NCBI GenBank assembly: GCA_963667915.2
Contig: CAXXNN010000003.1
Coordinates: 482,014 to 546,013 of the forward strand
Length of the DNA: 64,000 bases
Source of the DNA: Vicinamibacterales bacterium
GTDB lineage: Bacteria > Acidobacteriota > Vicinamibacteria > Vicinamibacterales > UBA823
Reading direction: 5' to 3'
Below the pieces are notes generated by a model. That model was not told where the DNA came from and did not search any database. It was given only the letters and a program-made list of their open reading frames with translations. The translations under genes were made by a program, and so were the position numbers. Position 1 is the stretch's first letter, and each line of letters starts with the position of its first letter. Positions 542 to 42,993 of this stretch are shown piece by piece.

Positions 542-1753
542 ATGCGTCGTTTCAGGGCGGCTTGGGTCCTCCCGATCGCATCCCCCCCTCTGGCCGACGC
601 CACCGTCACGGTGGACCGGGGCCGGATTCTGGCCGTCGAGCCGGCCGGCGCGGGACCTCGACACCCGGACGAGGTCGACCTCGGATCGGTCGCCGTGCTC
701 CCAGGGCTCGTCAACGCGCACACGCATCTCGAACTGTCGGGTCTGCGTGGCCGGGTGCCGCGCGCGGAGTCGATGCCGGCCTGGGTCGAGGGCGTGCTCG
801 CGCAGCGGTCCGCGGACACGGCGGGCGATTCGGCCGCCGTCGAGGCGGCGATCGCCGAGCTGCGGCGGGCCGGGACGGCACTCGTTGGCGACATCACGAA
901 CTCGCTGTCGACCGTCGGCCCGCTCGGCCGTGGCCCGGTGTCCGCCGTCGTGTTCCATGAGCTGATCGGATTCGCTCCGGCCGAGGTGGAGGTGACAGCC
1001 CACCGCGCCGTGGCCGATGCGCGCGGGGCTGAGACGGCCGCGCACGTGCGCCGTCGCGTGGCAGCGCATGCACCCTACTCGGTCGCGCCGTCGTTGTTCG
1101 CGGCGATTCAGCGCCACAGGACGGCGCACCGTCTCGAGGGTCCGCTGGCCGTCCACCTGGGGGAGTCGAGCGAGGAAATCCAGTTTCTGAAGGACGGGAC
1201 CGGTCCGTGGCGCCAGCTGTTGGAGCGGCTCGGCGTCTGGGATCCCGACTGGCGGCCGCCCCGGTGCGGTCCCGTGGAGTTCCTGGCCCGGGTCGGCTGG
1301 CTGGACCCTGGCGTCGTGGTTGTGCACGGCGTGCAGCTCACGATGGAAGAGCTCCGTCGGCTGGCGCGCCACGGCCTCACCCTGGTGGTCTGTCCGCGGA
1401 GCAACGCCTGGACGGGTGCGGGGCAGGCCCCGGTCCGGCCCGCCCTCGAGGCTGGTGTCCGATTGGCGATCGGCACCGATAGCCTCGCCAGCGCCCCGGA
1501 TCTCAATCTCTTCGCGGAGCTCGCGGCGCTACGGGCCCAGGCACCCGAGATACCGGCGCGCACGCTGCTTGCCGCCGCCACGTCGGGCGGTGCGCGGGCG
1601 CTCGGCTGGGCCGAGGCATACGGCACCGTCGAGCCTGGCAAGCGGAGCGAGCTGATTGCCGTCACGCTGCCGGACGAGGTTGCAGATGTGGAAGAATACC
1701 TGCTGAGCGGCATCACGCCGCGGGCCGTGCGTTGGCTCGAGGAGTGCGCATGA
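542..1753 (+). CDS. Amidohydrolase-superfamily metal hydrolase; by context possibly aminodeoxyfutalosine deaminase
   Basis: 403-aa ORF with VNAHTHLELS HxH metal motif and AIGTDSLAS near the C-terminus. Embedded in the menaquinone cluster. Stop overlaps the next start (ATGA 1750-1753). Confidence 0.6.
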   Translation: MRRFRAAWVLPIASPPLADATVTVDRGRILAVEPAGAGPRHPDEVDLGSVAVLPGLVNAHTHLELSGLRGRVPRAESMPAWVEGVLAQRSADTAGDSAAVEAAIAELRRAGTALVGDITNSLSTVGPLGRGPVSAVVFHELIGFAPAEVEVTAHRAVADARGAETAAHVRRRVAAHAPYSVAPSLFAAIQRHRTAHRLEGPLAVHLGESSEEIQFLKDGTGPWRQLLERLGVWDPDWRPPRCGPVEFLARVGWLDPGVVVVHGVQLTMEELRRLARHGLTLVVCPRSNAWTGAGQAPVRPALEAGVRLAIGTDSLASAPDLNLFAELAALRAQAPEIPARTLLAAATSGGARALGWAEAYGTVEPGKRSELIAVTLPDEVADVEEYLLSGITPRAVRWLEECA

Positions 1754-2658
1754 CCGGACGCCCGGCGTCGGGTCGGCGGCGGCGAGCGCCTTCGGCGAGT
1801 ATCATGTTGACCCGCATCCGGACGTACGCCGCATTCGTCAGGTTCAGCCATTCGGTGTTCGCGCTGCCGTTCGCGCTGGCGGGCGCGCTTCTGGCGTCGC
1901 GCCACGCGCCGGTGACGCTTGCGCGGGTCGGCTGGATCGTGGCCGCGATGGTAGCCGCCCGCGCCGCAGCCATGGGGTTCAATCGGCTGGCTGACGCGCA
2001 TCACGATGCCCTCAACCCCCGCACCGCTAATCGCGAGATGCCACGCGGGGTGGTGTCACGCGGACAGGCTGTGGCGTTCGTCACGGTGTGGTCGGTCACG
2101 TTCGTAGCCGTCACGGCGCAGATTTCGACGCTCTGCTTCGCCTTGTCGCCCGTGGCGCTTGCCATCGTCTTCTGGTATTCCGTGGCCAAACGCTATACGG
2201 CGTACACTCAAATGTTTCTGGGTGTGGCCATGGCCGTGGCGCCGGTGGGCGGCTGGATCGCCGCGGGCGGGCACCCGGCGTGGGAGCCGTGGTTGCTGGG
2301 TGTCGCAGTCGGGGCGTGGGTCGGGGGATTTGACGTGCTCTACGCCTGTCAGGATGTCGAGTTCGATCGGGCTCATGGGCTTCGGTCGATTCCTGCGCGG
2401 TTCGGCGTGACCGCCGCGTTAAGGATTTCTCGCGCGATGCACGTCGTGGCGATCGCCACCCTCGCGGCGCTGGCAGTCGTGACGGCGCTCGGTCCCATCT
2501 ACCTCACCGGCGTCGCGGCCGTTGCGGCGCTGCTCGTCTACGAGCAGTCGCTCGTACGCGCCGACGACCTGTCGCGGGTCAAGCAGGCGTTCGATCTGAA
2601 TGGCTACGTCGGGTTCTTGTATCTCTTCACGACGGCGGTTGCAGTGTATGTCGGATGA
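1750..2658 (+). CDS. UbiA-family aromatic prenyltransferase (MqnP-like)
   Basis: Multi-TM protein with NRLADAHHDALNPRT and YACQDVEFD Asp-rich UbiA motifs. Start chosen at the ATGA overlap; alternatives at 1732 and 1804. Confidence 0.75.
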   Translation: MTGRPASGRRRRAPSASIMLTRIRTYAAFVRFSHSVFALPFALAGALLASRHAPVTLARVGWIVAAMVAARAAAMGFNRLADAHHDALNPRTANREMPRGVVSRGQAVAFVTVWSVTFVAVTAQISTLCFALSPVALAIVFWYSVAKRYTAYTQMFLGVAMAVAPVGGWIAAGGHPAWEPWLLGVAVGAWVGGFDVLYACQDVEFDRAHGLRSIPARFGVTAALRISRAMHVVAIATLAALAVVTALGPIYLTGVAAVAALLVYEQSLVRADDLSRVKQAFDLNGYVGFLYLFTTAVAVYVG

Positions 2659-3259
2659 ACCGCGGTCCCTGGCCGTCGCCATTACCGGGGCGAGTGGTGC
2701 GCTGTACGCCGTCCGGACCGTTGCGGCCCTGCTGGAGCGGGGATACCGGATTGAGCTCGTCGTGAGTGACTTCGGACGTCGGCTGCTGCTGGAGGAGCTG
2801 GGCCGTGACGCCGCGGTCGATCGCTTGATGCCCTACCTTGTCCGGACCTACGGCGCGCAAGTCGAGCAGGGCGCGCTGCACCTGCATTCCAACAAGGATC
2901 TGGGTGCGGGAATCGCCAGCGGCAGCCACGGTTGCGACGGGATGGTCATCGTGCCATGCTCGATGAAGACGCTCGCCGGCGTCGCTCACGGTCTCTCCCG
3001 GACTCTCGTCGAGCGGGCCGCCGATGTCATGCTCAAGGAGCGTCGCCGGCTCGTGCTCGTGCCGCGCGAGACGCCCATGAGCCTGCCGCAACTGCGAAAC
3101 ATGGTGCTGTGTGCGGAGGCTGGCGCGACGATGCTGCCGGCCATGCCGGCGTTCTATCAGGGACCTGAGCGCCTGCCCGACCTGGCGGATTTCATGGCTG
3201 GCAAGATCCTGGCCGCCCTCGGGGTGGAGCACGACCTGTATCCGCCGTGGAAGGGATGA
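2648..3259 (+). CDS. ubiX: Flavin prenyltransferase UbiX (MqnL-like)
   Basis: LAVAITGASGALYAV N-terminus, VPCSMKTLAGVAHG and RETPMS motifs typical of UbiX/Pad1. Confidence 0.85.
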   Translation: MSDEPRSLAVAITGASGALYAVRTVAALLERGYRIELVVSDFGRRLLLEELGRDAAVDRLMPYLVRTYGAQVEQGALHLHSNKDLGAGIASGSHGCDGMVIVPCSMKTLAGVAHGLSRTLVERAADVMLKERRRLVLVPRETPMSLPQLRNMVLCAEAGATMLPAMPAFYQGPERLPDLADFMAGKILAALGVEHDLYPPWKG

Positions 3260-4005
3260 CGCGCCCGCCGGGTCCCATCCAGAAAGATGCCGCCCGCATC
3301 GCGGGCATGTTCGACGCGATCGCGCCCCGCTACGACGCCCTCAACCGACTGCTGAGCGCCGGGTTCGACCGGCGGTGGCGGGCGCGCGCTATCGATGCGC
3401 TCCAGCTGCGGGGTGACGAAACGGTCGTCGATCTGTGCACCGGCACGGCCGATCTGGCCCTGGCCGCCGTTCGGGCGCGCCCGGCCGGGGCCCGACGCGT
3501 GGTTGGCCTCGACTTTGCGGCCGAGATGCTGCGGCATGGCGCGAGAAAGCTCGGCCGTGACCCTGCGGGGAGCCGGGTGCGGCTGCTGCGTGGGGACGCA
3601 TCGCGGCTGCCCCTTGCCGACCGGTCTGTCGATGCGGTGACGATCGGCTTCGGGATCCGCAATATCGAGAACCCGCGCGCGGCATGCGCCGAGATGCGGC
3701 GAGTGCTCCGGCCGGGTGGCCGTGTGGCGATTCTCGAATTCGGGATGCCGTCTTCCACGCTGCTCCGCGGCCTGTATCAGTGGTATTTCACGCAGGTGCT
3801 GCCCCGCGTGGGTCGAGCCGTGTCGCGTCACTCGGATGCCTATGACTACCTGCCGGGGTCGGTCCTGGCGTTCTTGTCTCCGGCGGCCCTGTCGAACCTG
3901 CTCGGCGCGTCGGGGTTCACGCAGGTGCGGTGTATGTCCCTGACGTTCGGTGTGGTCTACCTGCATCTAGCAGTCCGTGGTGAAGCCTCGCTCGCTTCAG
4001 TCTAG
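3256..4005 (+). CDS. ubiE: Demethylmenaquinone/ubiquinone C-methyltransferase UbiE/MenG
   Basis: MFDAIAPRYDALNRLLS and VDLCTGTADL SAM motif. ATGA overlap with the ubiX stop. The last ~12 codons run through a repeat-derived sequence (see findings). Confidence 0.85.
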   Translation: MTRPPGPIQKDAARIAGMFDAIAPRYDALNRLLSAGFDRRWRARAIDALQLRGDETVVDLCTGTADLALAAVRARPAGARRVVGLDFAAEMLRHGARKLGRDPAGSRVRLLRGDASRLPLADRSVDAVTIGFGIRNIENPRAACAEMRRVLRPGGRVAILEFGMPSSTLLRGLYQWYFTQVLPRVGRAVSRHSDAYDYLPGSVLAFLSPAALSNLLGASGFTQVRCMSLTFGVVYLHLAVRGEASLASV

Positions 4006-4041
4006 GGCTCCGAGCGCGGGACGCTCACCACGAACGGCAGG
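3967..4041. repeat. Miniature derivative: two TIR-like arms only
   Basis: ctagcagtccgtggtgaagcc (3967-3987) and gctcaccacgaacggcagg (4023-4041), with the shared core cgtggtga/tcaccacg. Confidence 0.5.
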
Positions 4042-4075
4042 CCGTTCGCCCGCGCAGGAGTGCAGACCGATGAGC

Positions 4076-4084
4076 TGCTATAAT
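4076..4084 (+). promoter_or_regulatory. Extended -10 TGcTATAAT upstream of the tonB-like gene
   Basis: gagcTGCTATAATcgtctaacccactgATG. Confidence 0.35.
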
Positions 4085-4098
4085 CGTCTAACCCACTG

Positions 4099-5154
4099 AT
4101 GTACTTCCAGTTCGAGGACTTGCGCCCGGACACACCGTCCCTGGACGGTGCGATGTCACGCCGAGAAGGCTTCTTGATCTCGGTGGTCGGGCATGCGGTG
4201 GCCCTCGTGCTGCTGCTGCTGATTTCGACGCTCCCGGCGGTTCGGGCGGCAACCGAGCGCCGTGCGGAGGAAGCACTGCTTCGCCAGGCCCGGCTGCTGG
4301 AGCAGCGGCAAGCCCAGGAGCGACAGGTGCGCCGTTTCGTGTTCGTGCAGCCGCTCATCGACATCGAGGCGCTAGCTCCGCCGGACGCCGGGTTCCTGTC
4401 CGACCTCGACCGCGTGGCGAGCGCGCCCGAGCGCGCGGAGGACCCTACGAATCCACTGCCGTTCGCCAGAGGAAATTCTCCCGAGCTGGTGATCGCGCCG
4501 GAGACCGTGGAGACACCGCGCGGTGATGGCCCGGCGCCGGATCCGGCCGAGGGCGACCCGGCCGGTGAGGTGGCGGAGACCGAGCCGGCCGAGGCGTTGG
4601 ACCGGAGCGAGGTGGCGGAAGCGGCTGACGCGGCGCCGGGCGAGGCGGTTGGTCGTCTGGAACCAGACGGGGCGGCGGCGCCGGATGCCGTGGCGCCCCG
4701 GGTCGCGGTGCGCACCCTGCCACCGCGGTCGCTGTCGGGCGGCGCACTGGGGGACGCGATCCGCAATCTGCGACGCTACGTGGACCAGGAGAGCTTCAGC
4801 AATCTACGTGGCGACGGTGGCCAGTTCGGGCCGTCGATACAGTTCGATACGAAGGGGGTCGAGTTTGGCCCGTGGATTCGCCGCTTCATCGCACAAATCA
4901 AGCGTAATTGGCTCCTGCCATACGCCGCCATGGCGTTCAAGGGGCACACGGTCATTACGTTCAACGTGCACAAGAGCGGCGCGTTGACTGACGTGACCGT
5001 CCTCGCTCCGTCGACGGTCAGTTCCTTCAACTTGTCGGCCCGGAACGCGCTGCTGGCGTCGAATCCGACGCAGCCGCTGCCGCCGGAGTATCCGTCGGAC
5101 AAGGCGTTCTTCACGGTCACCTTCTACTACAACGAGCGGCCGCCGACGTACTAG
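4099..5154 (+). CDS. TonB-family energy transducer
   Basis: N-terminal TM helix (ISVVGHAVALVLLLLI), acidic/Pro-Ala-rich spacer, C-terminal TonB-type domain (GHTVITFNVHKSGALTDVTVL...FFTVTFYYN). Alternative start at 4153. Confidence 0.7.
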   Translation: MYFQFEDLRPDTPSLDGAMSRREGFLISVVGHAVALVLLLLISTLPAVRAATERRAEEALLRQARLLEQRQAQERQVRRFVFVQPLIDIEALAPPDAGFLSDLDRVASAPERAEDPTNPLPFARGNSPELVIAPETVETPRGDGPAPDPAEGDPAGEVAETEPAEALDRSEVAEAADAAPGEAVGRLEPDGAAAPDAVAPRVAVRTLPPRSLSGGALGDAIRNLRRYVDQESFSNLRGDGGQFGPSIQFDTKGVEFGPWIRRFIAQIKRNWLLPYAAMAFKGHTVITFNVHKSGALTDVTVLAPSTVSSFNLSARNALLASNPTQPLPPEYPSDKAFFTVTFYYNERPPTY

Positions 5155-5333: not shown

Positions 5334-5400
5334 CGCGCCTTGCGGAACGGGCACCTCGACGGTCTCGGTGCGACGCGGAACTTCCACCACGGGCTGCTAG
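5334..5400 (-). repeat. Partial copy (right ~67 bp) of the same element family
   Basis: gcgccttgcggaacgggcacctcgacggtctcggtgcgacgcggaacttccaccacgggctgctag aligns with the right end of copy C. Confidence 0.7.
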
Positions 5401-7791: not shown

Positions 7792-8841
7792 ATGAGCAGC
7801 CGCAGTATCAGAGAAGATCTCGAGGCCCGCGAGCGGGAATTCCTGGCGCCGCAAGCCTCGAAGAGCGCCGAGAGCCGAGGGCGGTTGCAGCCGGAGGAAG
7901 CTGATCCTATCCGGCCGGCCTTCCAGCGAGATCGGGATCGGATCGTGCACTGCAAGGCCTTTCGCCGGCTGAAGCACAAGACCCAGGTGTTCTTCTCGCC
8001 GGCTGGCGATCATTATCGGACGCGCCTGACGCACACGCTCGAGGTGTCGCAGATCGCCAGAACGATCGCGAAAGTCCTGCGGCTGCACGAGGAGCTCACC
8101 GAGGCCATTGCCCTTGGCCACGACCTCGGGCACACGCCGTTCGGGCATGCCGGAGAGCGCGTCTTGCGCGAGCTGATTCCGGGGGGATTCAACCATTACG
8201 AACAAAGTCTGCGGATCGTGGATCGCCTCGAGGACGAAGGGCGCGGCCTCAATCTGTCGTGGGAGGTCCGGGATGGCATCGCCACTCACTCCAAGGGCAA
8301 GCGGGGCGCGCCGGTTGGCGCCGAGGAGGCGCACCGGGCAACGACTCTCGAAGGCCAGGTCGCCCGCGTGGCCGACATCATTGCCTATGTCAATCACGAC
8401 ATCGACGACGCGCTGCGCGCCGGGCTGTTGGCGGTCGCGGACCTGCCGGCGGAGTCGATCCAGTTACTGGGACAGACGACCTCGATGCGGATCGGCCGAC
8501 TGGTCACGGACGTCGTGCTGCAGACGCTGGAGGCCGGGCTCGATCAGGTGAGGATGGGCGACCCCGTGCTGGATGCGCTGCTGGACCTGCGCGCCTTTCT
8601 GTTCGAGACGGTGTACGAGAACAGCGACGCCACGAGCGAATTCCACAAGGCGTCCGGCATCCTCGGCGGGCTCTGGGACAAGGTCCATGAACAACCCGAG
8701 GCATTTCTAGACGAACGGACCGTCGCGGACGAGGGAGTCGACGCCGCGGCTCGGGATTTTCTGGCCGGCATGACCGATCGATTCGCCGTCGGGCTGTACG
8801 AGCGGCTGTTCATTCCGAAACCGTGGGTCGAGATGGGCTGA
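7792..8841 (+). CDS. dgt: dGTPase-like HD-domain triphosphohydrolase
   Basis: RTRLTHTLEVSQIAR and ALGHDLGHTPFGH HD motifs. Confidence 0.8.
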   Translation: MSSRSIREDLEAREREFLAPQASKSAESRGRLQPEEADPIRPAFQRDRDRIVHCKAFRRLKHKTQVFFSPAGDHYRTRLTHTLEVSQIARTIAKVLRLHEELTEAIALGHDLGHTPFGHAGERVLRELIPGGFNHYEQSLRIVDRLEDEGRGLNLSWEVRDGIATHSKGKRGAPVGAEEAHRATTLEGQVARVADIIAYVNHDIDDALRAGLLAVADLPAESIQLLGQTTSMRIGRLVTDVVLQTLEAGLDQVRMGDPVLDALLDLRAFLFETVYENSDATSEFHKASGILGGLWDKVHEQPEAFLDERTVADEGVDAAARDFLAGMTDRFAVGLYERLFIPKPWVEMG

Positions 8842-8920
8842 TCCGGCCGCGCCGACCGGCGTGCTGGTCACATCCGTGCTAGAATTGTGGGTTCGGAGTT
8901 GCCTGACCGAGCCTGCTTGA

Positions 8921-9442
8921 ATGCTGCTAGACCTGCGGATGCTGGCGGAGCCGCGCGAACGACTCGAGCGGACGTATCCTGCCTCCGACTTCGAGGCGAC
9001 GGACGATTTCACGGTCGCGGCCGATGTGGCGTTCTCGTGCGACGTCGATCGACTTCACGACGGGTACCGGTTGGTCGGCCGCCTGGCGACACGGTTGCGG
9101 GTGCTGTGCTGTCGGTGCGCGGAACGGTGCGAGACGCCGGTGGACACGGCATTCGATCTGCGCTATTTGCCGCAAGGTCGAAACACGGGCGACGGCGAAT
9201 CGGAGATTGGCGATGACGATCTGTCGACGGCGTTCTATCGGGACGAGCAGATTGATTTGGGACAGCTCATGCGCGAGCAGTTTTACCTGGCGCTGTCGAT
9301 GAAACCGCTGTGCCGCGCGGAGTGCCGGGGACTGTGCTCGGTGTGCGGCAGGAATCTCAACGTGTCCCAGTGCGGGTGTTCGGCCGAGTGGCAGGATTCG
9401 AAATTGGATACCCTGAAAGGGCTGCTGGATCGCAAGACATGA
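8921..9442 (+). CDS. yceD: YceD/DUF177 family protein
   Basis: C-terminal CRAECRGLCSVCGRNLN motif; canonical position directly upstream of rpmF. Confidence 0.75.
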   Translation: MLLDLRMLAEPRERLERTYPASDFEATDDFTVAADVAFSCDVDRLHDGYRLVGRLATRLRVLCCRCAERCETPVDTAFDLRYLPQGRNTGDGESEIGDDDLSTAFYRDEQIDLGQLMREQFYLALSMKPLCRAECRGLCSVCGRNLNVSQCGCSAEWQDSKLDTLKGLLDRKT

Positions 9443-9470
9443 CGGGGAGTCTGGAGACGAGGAATCGACG

Positions 9471-9653
9471 ATGCCGAATCCCAAACGGAGACATTCGAAG
9501 TCGCGTACGGCCAAGCGACGGACGCATCAGGTGCTGCAACCGACGCCGCTCGGTGAGTGTCCGCAGTGTCATGAGATGAAGCGGCCGCACCAGGTGTGTT
9601 CGCACTGCGGCTACTACAAGGGGCGGCAGGTGCGTGAGGTCGAGGAGGTGTAG
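9471..9653 (+). CDS. rpmF: 50S ribosomal protein L32
   Basis: MPNPKRRHSKSRTAKRR plus CPQC...CSHCG zinc ribbon. The TAG stop lies in the end of repeat copy A. Confidence 0.95.
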   Translation: MPNPKRRHSKSRTAKRRTHQVLQPTPLGECPQCHEMKRPHQVCSHCGYYKGRQVREVEEV

Positions 9654-9827
9654 CCTCCCGTGGAGGGCGTCCGGCGTCGCACCGAGGGTCCCTGATATTG
9701 AAGCCGCGGTCCGCCCGAGCCAGGCGCGACGAGTAAACATCTCGGGAATATGTGAATGAGCAGCCACGCCGCCCGCGGGGATGCAGCGCCGGCCGACTGC
9801 GGCCGGACTTCCACCACGGGCGGCTAG
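9651..9827 (+). repeat. CTAG-ended inverted-repeat element, copy A (MITE-like, ~177 bp)
   Basis: Ends tagcctcccgtgg... and ...ccaccacgggcggctag. Alignable by eye over its whole length with copy B. Confidence 0.8.
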
Positions 9828-9839
9828 CCGTTACGCGCC

Positions 9840-10826
9840 ATGTACGTTGCGATCGACGCGATGGGCGGCGACGCGGCCCCCCGCGCCATCGTCGACGGCG
9901 CGATGGTGGCGGCGCGGTATCTGAACGTCGGGTTGATTCTCATCGGCCGCGCAGACAGCTTGCGCGCGGATCTCGACCGGCATGCCGACGGCGCCTCAGT
10001 CGACGTCCGGGTCGTCGAGACGGACGATGCCGTCGGAATGGACGAATCGCCCGCCGCCGCGCTGCGGCGCAAGCCGCGCGCGTCGGTCCGGATCGCGGCC
10101 GACCTGGTGGCGTCAGGCGACGCCGGCGCGATGTTCAGTGCCGGGAATACGGGTGCCACGCTGCTCGCGGCCCACAGCGCCTTCGGCATGCTCTCCGGTG
10201 TTGACCGGCCTGCGCTCGCGACGACGATTCCGACCCTTCGGCAGGAAGCGGTGCTCCTGGATTCCGGTGCGAACGCGGCGTGCCGTCCGCAGCACCTCGT
10301 GCAGTTCGGGGTGATGGGCTCGGCGTATGCGCAGTTGGCGCTGCAGGTCGAGCGACCGAGAATCGGCCTGCTCTCGACCGGTGAGGAGGCGTCGAAGGGC
10401 AACGAGCTGACCCGTGAAGCGCACCGCTTGCTGTCGGCGGCCCTGCCGGAGTTCATCGGCAACGTGGAGGGCCGGCAAGTCTACGCCGGGCTGGCCGACG
10501 TGGTCGTGTGCGATGGATTCACGGGTAATGTCGCGCTGAAGATCAGCGAAGGATTGGTCGAGATGGTGGAGAAGTTGCTGCGAGACGAGCTGTCACGTAC
10601 GTTCAGCACACGCGTGGGATATTTGCTGTCGCGGCGGGCGTTTCGCCGCTTTCGGAAGCGGGTCGACTATTCGGAGTACGGTGGTGCCCCGCTGCTCGGC
10701 GTCGCCGGGCTGTGCGTGGTGGGCCACGGTCGGTCGTCGGCAAAAGCGGTTCGCAACGCGGTGGTGATGGCGTCCCGTCTCGCCGATGCGCGAATCGTCG
10801 AGCGGCTGGGCGAGCGGATGGCCTAG
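9840..10826 (+). CDS. plsX: Phosphate acyltransferase PlsX
   Basis: IAIDAMGGDAAP N-terminus, VCDGFTGNVALK motif; rpmF-plsX-fab linkage. Confidence 0.9.
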   Translation: MYVAIDAMGGDAAPRAIVDGAMVAARYLNVGLILIGRADSLRADLDRHADGASVDVRVVETDDAVGMDESPAAALRRKPRASVRIAADLVASGDAGAMFSAGNTGATLLAAHSAFGMLSGVDRPALATTIPTLRQEAVLLDSGANAACRPQHLVQFGVMGSAYAQLALQVERPRIGLLSTGEEASKGNELTREAHRLLSAALPEFIGNVEGRQVYAGLADVVVCDGFTGNVALKISEGLVEMVEKLLRDELSRTFSTRVGYLLSRRAFRRFRKRVDYSEYGGAPLLGVAGLCVVGHGRSSAKAVRNAVVMASRLADARIVERLGERMA

Positions 10827-11000
10827 CAGCCCGTGGTGAAAGTCCGGCGCCGCACCGAGGGCCCCTGATATTGAAGCCGCGGTTCGCCCGAGCGAGGCGT
10901 GACGAGTGAGCATATCGGAAATATTTGAATGAGGAGCAACGCGGCCAGCGGGGATGCATCGCCGGCCGAATGCAGCCCGACTTTCACCACGGGCTGCTAG
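10823..11000 (+). repeat. CTAG-ended inverted-repeat element, copy B (178 bp, perfect 22-bp TIR)
   Basis: ctagcagcccgtggtgaaagtc ... gactttcaccacgggctgctag. Confidence 0.85.
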
Positions 11001-11003
11001 GCT
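10995..11003 (+). promoter_or_regulatory. Candidate extended -10 TGcTAGGCT formed by the repeat end plus flank, 7 nt before the fabD ATG
   Basis: gggcTGCTAGGCTgacatcgATG. Confidence 0.25.
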
Positions 11004-11010
11004 GACATCG

Positions 11011-11937
11011 ATGCTGGCATTCATCTTTCCGGGGCAGGGTTCACAGCGGGTCGGGATGGGCCGGGCGCTCGTCGACGCCTATCCCGAATGCCGCGCCACG
11101 TTCGACGAGGCGGACGCGGCGCTCGGCGAGTCACTGTCCTCGCTGTGTTTCGAGGGACCCGCGGATCGGCTCACACTGACCGAGAATGCACAGCCCGCGA
11201 TCCTGGCGACCAGCGTCGCCATGTATCGCGTGCTGGCGGCGCGCGGCCTCGCGCCGGCTATCGTCGCGGGCCACAGTCTCGGCGAGTATTCTGCGCACGT
11301 CGCGGCAGGGACGCTGGCGTTTGCCGACGCGCTGGGCATCGTCAGACGGCGGGGACGGTACATGCAGGACGCGGTGCCGGTCGGGGATGGCGCCATGGCC
11401 GCGCTGGTGGGACTGGATGCCGATGCGGTGCGTCGTGCCTGTGCGGAGGCGGCCAACGGCGACGTGGTTGCTCCAGCCAATCTGAACGCGCCAGGCCAGA
11501 TCGTGATTGCCGGCGCGCGGGCGGCCGTGGCGCGGGCGGGAGAGGCCGCGAAGCGGCTCGGCGCGAGGCGCGTGATCCCGTTGGCGGTCAGCGCGCCGTT
11601 CCACTGCGCGCTGATGCAGCCGGCCGCGGATCGGCTGGCGCCAGAATTGCGCGCCGCGCGCACGGCCAATCCGCGGGTGCCGGTCGTCGCCAACGTCGAT
11701 GCGGAGCCCAAGCGGGACGGGCCGGCCGCCGTGGAGGCGCTCATCGGGCAGATCACCTCACCGGTGCTCTGGGAACAAGTCGTCCGGCGCCTTGCATCGG
11801 AGGGCGCGCGCACGTATGTTGAGGTGGGGCCGGGGTCGGTGCTCACCGGATTGATGAAGAGGATCGACCGCTCGCTGAAGGCGGTCTCGGCGGATAGCCT
11901 GCCCACGCTGGATCACGTCAAGGAATCGATTGGATAG
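11011..11937 (+). CDS. fabD: Malonyl-CoA:ACP transacylase
   Basis: FIFPGQGSQ and GHSLGEYSA active-site motifs. The upstream 57 nt of the tracked ORF is repeat sequence. Confidence 0.9.
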   Translation: MLAFIFPGQGSQRVGMGRALVDAYPECRATFDEADAALGESLSSLCFEGPADRLTLTENAQPAILATSVAMYRVLAARGLAPAIVAGHSLGEYSAHVAAGTLAFADALGIVRRRGRYMQDAVPVGDGAMAALVGLDADAVRRACAEAANGDVVAPANLNAPGQIVIAGARAAVARAGEAAKRLGARRVIPLAVSAPFHCALMQPAADRLAPELRAARTANPRVPVVANVDAEPKRDGPAAVEALIGQITSPVLWEQVVRRLASEGARTYVEVGPGSVLTGLMKRIDRSLKAVSADSLPTLDHVKESIG

Positions 11938-28266: not shown

Positions 28267-28380
28267 CTCTAGTAACTCTAACGTGCCAAGTAGTTTATCC
28301 CGGCGCTGTCGCCAACGGCAAACAGCAGGACCACCGGTCGGGCACGGCCCGTGTTCAGCGGGCTGAATGCAGCGGGACTG

Positions 28381-31080
28381 TTACCTCGGGCTGCTCGAGC
28401 GCCGCAGCAACTGGCGGACGACCCCCGGGGTCTCGGCGAGCATTGTGTCGATCCGTGCAAGGTCCTTACCGCCGGCTTCGGCGAACTCCGCCCGCCCGCC
28501 GCCGCCGCCGCCCACCAGCGGCGCCAGGGCCTTGACGACCTGTCCGGCCGGGACGCGGGTCGTGAGGTCGTCGGTCACGTTCACGACGATGGCGACGCGT
28601 CCGGCGTCGGTCGCCGACGCCAGGACGACCAGGCCGGACGCCAGCTCGCCCTTCAAGGAGTCCGAGAGTGTTCGCAGGGCGCGCCGGTCCAGGCTGTCGG
28701 CGCGCCGCGTGACGAGCCTGATGCCGTCGATGTCCATCTGGCCGCCCGCGGCCGCGCCGGTTCCGGCCGCGAGCTTGAGCTTCAGATCGCGCACCTCGCG
28801 TGTCAGTTGCTTCACCCGCGCCTGCTGTTGGGCGAGCGCGTCGGCCGCTTGGTCTTCGGAGGTGGCCAAGGCGTGGAGGAGCTGTCGTAGCACCGCGCGG
28901 CGAGCCTGGGCCCGATCCAGTGCGGCCGTGCCGGTCACGGCCTCGACCCGCCGGATGCCGGCCGCGGTCCCCGTTTCCTGTTCGATCGAGAACGCGCCGA
29001 TCTCGCCCGTCGACCGGCAGTGCGTGCCCCCGCATAGTTCCTTGCTGAATCCGGAAATCGAGACGACCCGCACGCGCTCGCCGTACTTCTCTCCGAACAG
29101 GGCGATTGCCCCGGCGGCGATCGCCTCCTGCGGCGTCTGTTCGAGCGTCTCGACCGGGGCCGCGTTCAGGATCTGCCGGTTGACCAGTCGCTCGACTTCC
29201 TCGATCTCGCCGGGAGACACCGGCGCCGGATGCGCGAAGTCGAAGCGCAATCGGTCCGGCGCGACCAGCGACCCGGCTTGCTTCGCGTGGGTGCCGAGTA
29301 CCTGCTGCAGCGCTGCATGCAAGAGATGGGTTGCCGTGTGGTTACGCCGGATCGCGTCGCGACGGTCGGTATCGACTGCCGCCGCGACGACGTCGCCGCG
29401 GCTCAACGTTCCGGCCGTGACCCGGACCTTGTGTAGCCTGGGGTGCCCGCCCCAGCCGGTCATGCCGAGGACGGTCGCGCGGCGCGTGCCGTCACCGCTC
29501 ACGATCGTGCCCGTATCGGAGACCTGCCCTCCCGATTCGAGGTAGAAGGGCGTCCGGTCCAGCGCCAGGTAGCCGGTATCGCCCTCATGGAGCTGTTCTC
29601 GGGCCGCCGGTGCGTCGTTCCAGATCATCAGGATCGTCGCGCCGTCGACCGCCGTTCGGTCGTAGCCCTCGAAGCGGTCGCCGGCGGTTTCGAGCTCGGG
29701 CGCCAACTCCGCCGGGACGCCAAAACTCGGCGCATCGACGGCTTTGGCTTTGAACCTGCTTGCGGCTCGGGCCCGCTCGCGCTGGTCCGTCATCAGACGC
29801 TCGAAGCCTTCCCAGTCGATCGCCAGGTGCCGTTCACTCGCCAGATCCTCCACGAAATCAGCCGGCAGGCCGAGCGAATCGTACAACCGGAAGACGTCCT
29901 CGCCGGCGATTCGCTGATCGCCGGCCGCGGCGCGGGCCAGCACCTCCTCGAGTTTGGGCAGCCCGGCCGTGAGCACCGCGTCGAACCGGTCCTCCTCCCG
30001 GCGCACCGCGACCGCGATCGACGGGCAGTCCCGCGCGAGCGTCGGATAGGCGTGCTGCATCTCGTTGACGACGACGTCGACCAGGCGGTGGAGGAACGGC
30101 TCGGTGAGGCCCAGTCGCTTCCCATGGCGCATGGCGCGCCGCATGATCTTTCTGAGGACGTATCCTCGCCACTCGTTCGACGGCGTCACCGAATCGCCGA
30201 TCAGAAAGGTCGTCGCGCGGACGTGGTCGGCGACGACCCGCATCGACACATCGGTCTCGGACCCGGCGCCGTAGCGCGTGCCGGCCATGTCGGCGATAGC
30301 GCGGAGCAGTGGTTGAAACAGATCCGTGTCGTAGCTGGACTGCACGCCCTGCAGAACGGTCGCCGCGCGCTCCAGGCCCATGCCGGTGTCAATCGAGGGG
30401 GTCGGCAGTGGCACGAGCGAGCCGTCGTCCTGCCGGTCGAATTCCATGAACACGATGTTCCACAACTCGATGTAGCGGTCGCAGTCGCAGGCGGGTCCCA
30501 GGCAGGTTGGTGCGGCGCACGGTTGGTCATCGCCCTGATGAAAATGAATCTCCGAGCATCGGCCGCAGGGGCCGGTGTCGCCCATCGCCCAGAAGTTGTC
30601 GACGGCGCCCAGGGCGTCGATTCGGTCGGCCGGCAGGAACCGGCGCCAGAGATCGTAGGCCTCATCGTCCCGCGGCGTGCGCGCGTCACCCTCGAACACG
30701 GTAGCTCGGAGACGATCGGCCGGGAGCCCCCACTCGTCGACCAGCAGCGTCCAGGCCATGGCGGTCGCTTTGTCCTTGAAGTAGTCGCCGAACGAGAAGT
30801 TCCCGAGCATCTCGAAGAAGGTGTGGTGCCGCAACGAGCGGCCGACCATGTCGAGGTCGTTGTGCTTTCCACTGACGCGCATGCATTTCTGCGTCTTCGC
30901 CGCGCGCGTGTAGTCGCGGCGCTCGCGGCCCTGGAACACCGCCTTGAACTGATTCATCCCGGCGTTGGTGAAGAGCAGCGTGGGGTCGTCTTCGGGGACG
31001 AGCGACGCGCTGTCGACAATGCGGTGACCGAGCCGCTCGAAGTAGTCGAGGAAGCTGCGCCGGGTGTCGCGGGCGTTCAT
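28381..31080 (-). CDS. alaS: Alanyl-tRNA synthetase
   Basis: RHHTFFEMLGNFSFGDYFK motif, editing-domain HTATHLLH, C-terminal GGGGGR motif. Confidence 0.95.
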   Translation of the reverse strand: MNARDTRRSFLDYFERLGHRIVDSASLVPEDDPTLLFTNAGMNQFKAVFQGRERRDYTRAAKTQKCMRVSGKHNDLDMVGRSLRHHTFFEMLGNFSFGDYFKDKATAMAWTLLVDEWGLPADRLRATVFEGDARTPRDDEAYDLWRRFLPADRIDALGAVDNFWAMGDTGPCGRCSEIHFHQGDDQPCAAPTCLGPACDCDRYIELWNIVFMEFDRQDDGSLVPLPTPSIDTGMGLERAATVLQGVQSSYDTDLFQPLLRAIADMAGTRYGAGSETDVSMRVVADHVRATTFLIGDSVTPSNEWRGYVLRKIMRRAMRHGKRLGLTEPFLHRLVDVVVNEMQHAYPTLARDCPSIAVAVRREEDRFDAVLTAGLPKLEEVLARAAAGDQRIAGEDVFRLYDSLGLPADFVEDLASERHLAIDWEGFERLMTDQRERARAASRFKAKAVDAPSFGVPAELAPELETAGDRFEGYDRTAVDGATILMIWNDAPAAREQLHEGDTGYLALDRTPFYLESGGQVSDTGTIVSGDGTRRATVLGMTGWGGHPRLHKVRVTAGTLSRGDVVAAAVDTDRRDAIRRNHTATHLLHAALQQVLGTHAKQAGSLVAPDRLRFDFAHPAPVSPGEIEEVERLVNRQILNAAPVETLEQTPQEAIAAGAIALFGEKYGERVRVVSISGFSKELCGGTHCRSTGEIGAFSIEQETGTAAGIRRVEAVTGTAALDRAQARRAVLRQLLHALATSEDQAADALAQQQARVKQLTREVRDLKLKLAAGTGAAAGGQMDIDGIRLVTRRADSLDRRALRTLSDSLKGELASGLVVLASATDAGRVAIVVNVTDDLTTRVPAGQVVKALAPLVGGGGGGRAEFAEAGGKDLARIDTMLAETPGVVRQLLRRSSSPR

Positions 31081-33863: not shown

Positions 33864-34027
33864 TTAACCCCAGAACTCACTTGTGTTGCCACGCCTGGCG
33901 TGTTCTGCCCGGCGAGGGCGGCGTTGCTCCTCAGTCATTTGGGCCCACCAAACTCCTTCGTCGCGCCTTGCCCTCACCGTCCAGCCCGGTGCCAGCCGTT
34001 GTCAACACAAGTGAGTTCTGGGGTTAA
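33864..34027. repeat. 164-bp element bounded by perfect 25-bp inverted repeats (MITE-like or long hairpin)
   Basis: ttaaccccagaactcacttgtgttg (33864-33888) and caacacaagtgagttctggggttaa (34003-34027). Confidence 0.85.
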
Positions 34028-35011: not shown

Positions 35012-35070
35012 TAGCAGCCCGTCGTGAAAGGCCGGCCGCGTTCGGCCCGCGATGTTGCGGGTGGGCGACT
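35012..35070 (-). repeat. Truncated copy (left TIR plus ~35 bp) of the same family
   Basis: tagcagcccgtcgtgaaaggccggccgcgttcggcccgcgatg... aligns with the start of copy C. Confidence 0.55.
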
Positions 35071-42051: not shown

Positions 42052-42229
42052 CGACCAGCCCGTGGTGAAAGTCCCGCTGCATTCGACCGCCGATGCATCC
42101 CGCCATGGGCGGCGCTGGGCTTTGTTCACGATGGGTCAAATACTCCCGGTATTTTCCCTCCTCGCGCCTTGCGGGGTGGGCGCCTCGGCGGCCTCGGTGC
42201 CACGCTGGACTTTCACCACGGACTGCTAG
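42052..42229 (-). repeat. CTAG-ended inverted-repeat element, copy C (inverted orientation)
   Basis: cagcccgtggtgaaagtc ... gactttcaccacggactgctag. Interior matches the reverse complement of copies A and B. Confidence 0.8.
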
Positions 42230-42230
42230 C

Positions 42231-42993
42231 CCTACTTATCGGTCGATGGCGGCAGGCCGCGCACGGCGCGGCCCGCGCGGAAGCGGTGCGGGGCGTTTGG
42301 GGTCCCCGCGAGCGCCCGAGCCGGGGTGTGGGGGGTTGGGCCTGCTGATCGGTCGATGGCGGCAGGCCGCGCACGGCGCGGCCCGCGCGGAAGCGGTGCG
42401 GGGCGTTTGGGGTCCCCGCGAGCGCCCGAGCCGGGGTGTGGGGGGTTGGGCCTGCTGATCGGTCGATGGCGGCAGGCCGCGCACGGCGCGGCCCGCGAGG
42501 GCGCGGTGCGGGGCGTTTGGGGTCCCCGCGAGCGCCCGAGCCGGGGTGTGGGGGGTTGGGCCTGCTGATCGGTCGATGGCGGCAGGCCGCGCACGGCGCG
42601 GCCCGCGCGGAAGCGGCGCGGGGCATTCGGGGTCCCCGCGAGCGCCCGAGCCGGGGTGTGGGGGGTTGGGCCTGCTGATCGGTCGATGGCGGCAGGCCGC
42701 GCACGGCGCGGCCCGCGAGGGCGCGGTGCGGGGCGTTTGGGGTCCCCGCGAGCGCCCGAGCCGGGGTGTGGGGGGTTGGGCCTGCTGATCGGTCGATGGC
42801 GGCAGGCCGCGCACGGCGCGGCCCGCGAGGGCGCGGTGCGGGGCGTTTGGGGTCCCCGCGAGCGCCCGAGCCGGGGTGTGGGGGGTTGGGCCTGCTGATC
42901 GGTCGATGGCGGCAGGCCGCGCACGGCGCGGCCCGCGAGGGCGCGGTGCGGGGCGTTTGGGGTCCCCGCGAGCGCCCGAGCCGGGGTGTGGGG
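42231..42993. repeat. Tandem satellite, 110-bp unit x ~6.9
   Basis: Unit starts at 42241, 42351, 42461, 42571, 42681, 42791 and 42901. Units are nearly identical, with two haplotypes differing at 3 positions. Confidence 0.95.

Follow-up and report, generated by a model that had tools for sequence, protein, structure and literature searches.

Two copies of a short repeat flank plsX in a 64,000-nucleotide stretch of Vicinamibacterales DNA (assembly GCA_963667915.2, contig CAXXNN010000003.1, positions 482,014 to 546,013 of the forward strand; hereafter the window, to which coordinates refer unless another locus is named). These copies, which we call A (at the end of rpmF) and B (between plsX and fabD), belong to a family of MITEs (miniature transposable elements with inverted repeats) of ~160-172 bp that is abundant in Vicinamibacterales-like Acidobacteriota. 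Very probably, the family is mobilised in trans by a transposase of the IS1182/IS5 type, inserts at TA within YTAR, and varies in its presence between close relatives, with copy A an old insertion and copy B a recent one. This reading is carried by the repeat family itself, by terminal inverted repeats (TIRs) in common with transposase-bearing insertion sequences (ISs), by the statistics of the flanks, and by polymorphism between filled and empty sites. An earlier reading of the letters alone (the sequence-only reading) had favored a MITE, and that class assignment held: the element is 172 bp long, has TIRs that match those of an autonomous IS, lacks a transposase gene, and occurs in dispersed copies. 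No description of the present family was found in the literature searched.

Copies A and B overlap the stop codons of rpmF and plsX

The features of the rpmF-plsX-fabD region are as follows.
9471-9653, + strand: rpmF (ribosomal protein L32, 60 aa); orthologues match Pfam Ribosomal_L32p, and copy A's left junction falls on the stop
9651-9827, + strand: MITE copy A; element proper 9653-9824, flanking TA at 9651-9652 and 9825-9826
9840-10826, + strand: plsX, 328 aa; the protein ends ...MA owing to the copy B junction
10824-11000, + strand: MITE copy B; element proper 10826-10997 (172 bp), flanking TA at 10824-10825 and 10998-10999
11011-11937, + strand: fabD; the ATG lies 10 nt beyond the right junction of copy B

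The sequence-only reading described two elements in the same orientation, alignable end to end. Indeed, copies A and B are direct repeats, identical at 151 of 177 positions (85.3%) and free of gaps. The perfect 22/22 TIR reported for copy B was also recovered (CTAGCAGCCCGTGGTGAAAGTC / GACTTTCACCACGGGCTGCTAG), and a longer match extends to 27/28 positions. The element proper has G as its first base and C as its last, with TA on either side. CTAG ends had been assigned to both copies; this is correct for copy B, but the left end of copy A reads GTAG, and its TIR has decayed, with arms that match at ~20/25 positions. As proposed, both TAG stops fall within the left ends of the elements: the rpmF stop (9651-9653) is composed of the flanking TA and the first G of copy A, and the plsX stop (10824-10826) is built in the same way with the first G of copy B. 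The ancestral plsX stop, TGA, is still present downstream of copy B at 11003-11005. PlsX has 330 aa and ends MAAG in fifteen close relatives (331 aa in one further relative); here, the copy B junction leaves it two residues shorter.

The fold of copy B reaches -98.5 kcal/mol (z = -6.9), whereas the fold of copy A is no better than that of shuffled sequence (z = -0.64). The claim that neither copy contains an internal open reading frame (ORF) needs amendment, since minus-strand ORFs of 55-67 codons are present in both; what stands is that these ORFs carry no codon-position signal, the 26 differences between A and B being split 7/8/10 over codon positions. A coding reading was rejected on this even distribution and on the lack of conservation of the frames both in a third window copy (copy C, described below) and in the relative L121.

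Orthologous loci carry filled and empty sites

Relatives were chosen as a graded series of PlsX homologues, and their contigs were compared with the window at the rpmF-plsX spacer (site A) and the plsX-fabD spacer (site B).
L121, PlsX 96% identical: site A filled; site B empty (plsX ...MAAG-TGA-CATCG-ATG fabD)
L125, PlsX 96% identical: site A cleanly empty (GAGGTT-TA-GCTATTACC); site B holds a different subfamily member
L122, PlsX 92% identical: site A holds a 91-nt remnant; site B empty
L123, PlsX 87% identical: site A empty (25-nt spacer); site B empty, with plsX and fabD abutting
L124, PlsX 81% identical: site A holds a 37-nt fragment of the opposite element end; site B empty

Site A provides a filled/empty pair. 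The empty allele of L125 reads GTT-TA-GCTATTAC and the filled allele of L122 reads GTT-TA-[element]-TA-GCTATTAC, so that TA is duplicated; the window is filled likewise, as TA-[element]-TA. Where no element is present, the spacers of relatives at 87-96% PlsX identity measure 12-25 nt between rpmF and plsX and 0-5 nt between the plsX stop and the fabD ATG. Empty alleles were also recovered from sequencing samples. In X1, the sample in which the window is best represented, an empty-A allele is present, and empty-B alleles were found in contigs of sample X9 and in the metatranscriptome X28, where a single contig places plsX and fabD on one molecule. The absence of further copies, or conservation of the same sequence at these loci, had been named as the outcomes that would speak against a mobile repeat; instead, further copies exist and the two sites vary among relatives.

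The orthologue of copy A in L121 is only 78.7% identical to the window copy, compared with 95-98% for the flanking genes. Because copy A is far more diverged than its neighbor genes, individual copies appear to be under little or no constraint. Copy A would be the older insertion, common to some relatives at 92-96% PlsX identity and decaying, and copy B a younger one confined to the closest lineage of the window. In L124, the rpmF stop lies within CTAG and the 37-nt MITE fragment follows directly (2961-3010), which points to an independent insertion at the same stop codon in reverse orientation. The plsX ATG of L124 is located inside the conserved GCGATGCA motif of the element, and this start may be element derived.

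Copy B was originally thought to fill the slot of fabH. However, plsX and fabD are neighbors without an intervening fabH in every relative compared, from 96% down to 71% PlsX identity, with gaps of 0-99 nt. The lack of fabH between the two genes is therefore the ancestral state in this lineage and not an effect of the insertion.

Full-length insertion sequences have the same termini

One genome per prokaryotic species was scanned for the TIR core, which yielded at least 120 loci, mostly in metagenome-assembled genomes of Acidobacteriota/Vicinamibacterales. Nearly all of the matches listed are preceded by TA, mostly as CTA or TTA, and PlsX or RpmF is encoded at none of the 120 loci listed from other genomes. 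Short TIR-bounded elements among the matches listed, many of them 159-163 bp, align over their full length to copy B at 70-78% identity. A second TIR-bounded class consists of full-length ISs of 1.44-1.54 kb. At locus L062, for example, two identical 1.54-kb copies bounded by CTAGCAGCCCGTGGTGAAAGTC...GACTTTCACCACGGGCTGCTAG each encode a 462-aa protein, which, like its homologue at L041, matches the Pfam domains DUF772 and DDE_Tnp_1. The best NCBIfam model for this transposase is IS1182, at 157-174 bits relative to a curated cut-off of 270; IS5 models come next and are weak. By tblastn, homologous transposases adjoin the TIR at more than 20 of the loci listed, several of them in Vicinamibacterales. 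The left end of the ISs, TAGCAGCCCGTGGTGAAAGTC, is almost invariant across 12 complete copies, and ISs and short elements are unrelated past the terminal ~20 bp. A relative on the proteobacterial plasmid pLB1, 50% identical and annotated as an IS5 family transposase, has ends of the same type with TA flanks (CTA|ACAGGCCGTTGACGAAGTC ... GACTTCGTCACCGCGCTGC|TAA).

The sequence-only reading had suggested a search for an IS with the same TIRs and expected an IS630-type enzyme. Such an IS was found in more than 20 genomes, but its transposase is IS1182/IS5-like: the full-length TIR-bounded elements encode DUF772 and DDE_Tnp_1 without a DDE_3/IS630-type domain. The two IS copies of L062 stand in tandem, 207 bp apart (1426-4712), with an IS630-type (DDE_3) gene directly downstream on the other strand; this region looks like an IS-rich hotspot.

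The abundance of the repeat was also apparent in X1, where single-copy depth is ~58 and contig depth summed over two TIR bins reaches 27,000 and 41,000, sums that pool all organisms in the sample and are not a copy number. Dozens of X1 contigs have distinct flanks and diverge exactly at 10823 and at 11000-11002. These depths show a very large repeat family.

Elements are seated at TA within YTAR

Among the matches listed, we could pair both flanks of 70 elements. The flanks read CTA..TAG in 34, CTA..TAA in 7, TTA..TAG in 5, and TTA..TAA in 1; those of the remaining elements are degenerate, and the TIRs are conserved across the set. From these flanks, the target is YTAR, mostly CTAG. A 4-bp duplication like that of IS5 was disfavored, since 13 of the 47 elements with YTA...TAR flanks have unequal terminal 4-mers. 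The best fit would be a 2-bp duplication of TA with invariant G...C element ends. The TA duplication at a CTAG-type target that had been postulated from the two copies alone is thus supported both by the flanks of these 70 elements and by the filled/empty comparison at site A.

The mechanism suggested by these comparisons is as follows. The MITEs carry the terminal ~20 bp (5'-GCAGCCCGTGGTGAAAGTC) of a widespread 1.45-1.54-kb IS, whose transposase, a DDE enzyme of the IS1182/IS5 type, is presumed to move them in trans. The site of insertion would be the TA within 5'-YTAR-3', mostly CTAG, with duplication of TA. When the target is a stop codon, the first G of the element would rebuild TAG at the upstream junction, and such insertions would be harmless and would persist.

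Element ends coincide with stop codons of existing genes

We asked how often element ends fall on stop codons. Among the matches listed, 23 of 149 TA-flanked element ends coincide with the stop of a long, GC3-rich ORF, compared with 2.5% of other YTAR sites; since the ORF filter rejects short genes such as rpmF, the count of 23 is a minimum. CTAG is otherwise scarce in this GC-rich genome, with 36 occurrences in the window versus 65 expected. In L121, a family member with a degenerate right end (1821-2011) sits exactly on the stop of an HD-domain gene upstream of yceD, where it turns TGA into TAA; neither the window (8839-8845) nor L122 has an element at this site. Seating on stop codons is attributable to YTAR containing TAG and TAA, combined with purifying selection against intragenic insertions. 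The elements had been described as supplying the rpmF and plsX stops; rather, they landed in or beside stops that already existed and did not provide one to a gene lacking it.

Other family members in the window

The window holds three full copies and at least four fragments. The 18-nt TIR core GCNGYCCGTGGTGRAAGT occurs seven times, versus 0.07 expected by chance.
42055-42229, - strand: MITE copy C, full length; ~68% identical to A and B and nearer to the general family consensus
5364-5400, + strand: solo right-end MITE fragment, ending ...CCACCACGGGCTGCTAG
35012-35054, + strand: truncated left-end MITE fragment, beginning TATAGCAGCCCGTCGTGAAAGGCCGG...
3967-3984, + strand: short TIR remnant, CTAGCAGTCCGTGGTGAAG
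28358-28395, + strand: degenerate right-end remnant, ~82% identity over 38 nt
33864-34027, - strand: 164-bp element with the same conserved core and unrelated, perfect 25-bp TIRs ending in TTAA (TTAACCCCAGAACTCACTTGTGTTG)

Copy C has a degenerate left flank, with GA where TA is expected, and is 84% identical to a copy at locus L085. A tandem array of ~110-bp GC-rich units begins 1 nt past its right end (42230-42993), and no similarity to the MITE core was seen in this array. Within the TIR, the segment GTGAAAGTCCGG (10833-10848, and at the same place in other copies) shares 10 consecutive bases with GAGGAAAGUCCGGGC, which is universally conserved in RNase P RNA; this likeness is probably a coincidence, as Rfam gives no RNase P match.

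The interior of the elements is a conserved, covarying fold

We aligned 28 full copies from different genomes, picked by their TIRs alone (alignment A1). The common fold is one long, irregular hairpin in which 93.9% of cells pair, versus 82.7% in shuffled alignments and 32-44% with slid partners. Compensatory cells numbered 154, compared with 50.6 after shuffling, and 29 of the 56 pairs have changed on both sides. The unpaired bases of the internal loops are near invariant (GCA-CCGA-GACC opposite GGTC-GAA-TGC). The fold is also strand biased: A1 contains 118 G·U but 21 A·C pairs, the consensus folds at -80.4 kcal/mol on the forward strand versus -40.7 on the reverse, and in 25 of 28 copies the forward strand gives the more stable fold. 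Some of this bias falls within the TIRs, where it matches the way in which the left and right ends of the full-length ISs differ; the remainder is internal. In window copies A and B, the "sense" strand folds no better than the other. No orientation preference relative to neighboring genes was seen on the 5' side of the elements (12 same, 10 opposite).

Even in this TIR-selected set, a core of ~60 nt, AAGGCGCGACGA...AGGAGCAACGC, is near invariant, with the layout GGC-AAGGCGCGACGA-N4-hairpin-N4-AGGAGCAACGC-GCC. The core also occurs between unrelated ends, namely in the window element at 33864-34027 with its 25-bp TTAA TIRs, at L065 (CTAAGGGTCCGCGCAAGAATAAG ends), and at L090. A metagenome scan with the core pattern gave at least 120 loci, with 84 analyzable elements, from soil and marine metagenomes. 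These added at least six more classes of terminal repeat (CTAGTGTCCCGTC..., CTAGTGCCGTCCG..., CTAAGTG..., TTAGGGTCCG..., TAGAGAGCC..., and AGAGTCTGTG...), most of which end in YTAR among the matches listed. Forms of the core of ~100 nt that lack YTAR-type TIRs were seen at seven metagenome loci (L161, L166, L174, L185, L199, L233, and L243); their ends are GTTGCG...CGCAAC or GCTAAGC...GCTTAGC, followed by a small CCC-GNA-GGG hairpin.

Across this wider set of elements, conservation is greater in the core than at the termini. The core has an outer stem and an apical hairpin, both covarying, along with an internal loop that is invariant, rich in purines, and pseudo-symmetric. Outer stem and apical hairpin covary freely, and the forward strand is the more stable in 62 of 69 elements among the matches listed. 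Each invariant strand is a direct copy of AGGNGCNACG; set against each other, the two give Watson-Crick pairs in alternation with G·A mismatches, a tandem GA/AG among them. The core's covariance model (R1) scored 75.8 bits (E = 9e-20) at 33886-33997 in the window, 65.3 bits in copy B, 58.6 in copy A, and 32.9 in copy C. Only two tRNAs in the window reach the gathering score of an Rfam model, and nothing relevant was found at E ≤ 10 in 9400-11300. Judged by eye, the core does not fit the defining consensus of a K-turn, an IHF site, attC, or REP/RAYT.

It is conceivable, though doubtful, that the ~60-100-nt core rather than the TIRs is the selected unit, as an uncatalogued functional RNA or a folded single-stranded DNA module. 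Such a module could be a cofactor site for transposition that is read on one strand, or a structure bound by a host factor or transposase that has co-diversified with the YTAR-targeting IS clade. Conservation and strand bias of the core could also stem from selection on transposing "master" copies, in which a folded single strand or cofactor site is used, and this fits the decay of resident copies; the alternative is an RNA with a function of its own.

Weighing the explanations

The sequence-only reading had offered a conserved, structured intergenic RNA as the alternative to a MITE. In its locus-specific form, the elements would be a cis-regulatory RNA of the rpmF-plsX-fab operon, such as an attenuator or processing site duplicated around plsX. 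Both copies are indeed sense within one operon, and copy B folds very stably. Nevertheless, close relatives (PlsX 87-96% identical) have one site or both sites empty, which refutes this form of the idea; the same element is found at unrelated loci in both orientations, in the window and in other genomes, and the fold of copy A resembles shuffled sequence. We regard a locus-specific RNA as extremely improbable. What survives of the structured-RNA idea is the family-wide fold, which is strongly covarying and strand biased. In a broader version, the elements would be carriers of a functional structured RNA or single-stranded DNA whose core is selected and whose terminal repeats are interchangeable vehicles. 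The covariation across the 28 copies, the excess of G·U over A·C pairs, and the recurrence of a near-invariant core with several terminal-repeat classes are as such a carrier would predict. However, the core has no Rfam match, no promoter or terminator consensus was found in 9400-11300, copies show no orientation preference relative to genes, and resident copies behave as unconstrained: the copy A orthologue has diverged well beyond its flanking genes, and copies A and B fold no better in the sense direction. Selection of "master" copies for transposition could also yield the same covariation. We consider this broader version unlikely, although it is the strongest of the competitors.

A derivation from IS630/Tc1-mariner elements is highly improbable. 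IS630 targets CTAG and duplicates TA. These traits are shared by both readings and are not diagnostic, and the IS630 target has also been given as NTAN (PMC5678879). A DDE_3 transposase gene does adjoin the IS copies of L062, but it lies outside the TIR-bounded units, and all full-length TIR-bounded elements (12 complete and more than 20 partial, among the matches listed) encode DUF772 and DDE_Tnp_1. We therefore favor a family of MITEs mobilised in trans by an IS1182/IS5-like transposase, a role for that enzyme which we infer from the shared termini.

Several observations weigh against this preferred reading. No full-length IS is present in the 64-kb window, and a transposase resident in this genome is therefore putative. 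The similarity of MITE and IS is limited to the terminal ~20 bp, so the MITE did not arise from the IS by simple deletion. A single element speaks against an asymmetric 3-bp (CTA) duplication, which is still conceivable on the flank data. The conserved interior, the compensatory changes, and the G·U strand bias exceed the needs of a passive MITE. Finally, site B does not form a clean filled/empty pair: the sequence is ATGGC-GGCGG-GCTGA in relatives and ATGGC-CTA[...]TAG-GCTGA in the window. The left junction of site B in L125 (ATGGCC-TAG, 1544-1596) is the same as that of the window even though the element there is another subfamily member, so that the derived ATGGCCTAG junction is common to both while the elements differ. 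These alleles are most simply explained if an allele with CTAG was present before insertion, with independent hits on this one site in the window and in L125; alternatively, a non-canonical event may have taken place, or a resident copy may have been replaced through recombination with another copy.

Possible effects on fabD and the operon

The sequence-only reading proposed that the right end of copy B contributes an extended -10 (TGCTAGGCT) driving a leaderless fabD. This is at best a guess: a consensus scan of 9400-11300 found no promoter or terminator. Among contigs at a depth of 2-5, one Logan contig that is possibly derived from RNA spans 10996-11146 and begins upstream of the proposed leaderless start; its end at 10996 is the repeat boundary, where assemblies break, and it is not decisive for the fabD start. 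Judging from the spacing, copy B may loosen the coupling of plsX and fabD, the spacer having grown from 5 nt to 184 nt, and the perfect 24-bp stem directly upstream of the fabD start could be a further effect on the operon.

Comparison with known repeat families

Most similar to the present family are the RUP, Correia/NEMIS, and ERIC repeats, TA-flanked, hairpin-forming sequences of 100-170 bp within operons (PMC2229807), and the family is ordinary in kind when set beside them. It resembles RUP with IS630-Spn1 in being ~100-170 bp and non-autonomous, with TIRs matching an IS (a resident one in the case of RUP), insertion at TA, and many intergenic copies (PMC2229807). However, the partner here has a transposase of another family, with DUF772 and DDE_Tnp_1 (IS1182/IS5-like); moreover, RUP has no known internal motif, in contrast to the conserved, covarying interior described above. 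Correia/NEMIS elements resemble the family in length (~105-155 bp), TIRs of ~24-26 bp, terminal TA, a long stem-loop transcript, location beside or inside operons, and variable presence from strain to strain (PMC2229807). They differ in having no identified autonomous partner, in carrying an IHF site and promoter elements, in processing by RNase III, and in sequence, which is unrelated. ERIC/IRU elements are likewise imperfect palindromes (~127 bp) with TA ends, transcribed within operons, and with structure kept across copies, but they have 7-bp TIRs and no known transposase, in contrast to the 20-bp TIR of IS type and the full-length IS counterparts of the present family.

With respect to the partner, IS5 of Escherichia coli targets (C/T)TA(G/A), that is, YTAR/CTAG. 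The present family has the same target consensus and a transposase of a related superfamily (DDE_Tnp_1); IS5 duplicates 4 bp, whereas a 2-bp TA duplication is favored here. IS1182 supplies the best NCBIfam model for the transposase, at scores below the curated cut-off, and the DUF772 plus DDE architecture agrees. The IS1182 family is heterogeneous, and some of its members target palindromes (PMC5678879). IS1272 replaces stem-loops without duplication, unlike the present family, in which TA is duplicated. What sets the family apart is its partner transposase family, its YTAR target, and a core that spans terminal-repeat classes.

These results bear on annotation and assembly as well as on transposition. 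The family accounts for the spurious N-terminal extensions (FHHG peptides) and odd gene ends in Vicinamibacteria-like genomes and for short-read assembly breaks at these sites, and it offers a simple mechanistic reason for elements seated on stop codons. It is tied through its termini to an IS1182/IS5-like transposase, and this IS clade thereby gains a defined end sequence and a YTAR target with TA duplication. If the core is in fact needed for transposition or acts as RNA, it would represent a new type of cargo or cofactor for bacterial MITEs.

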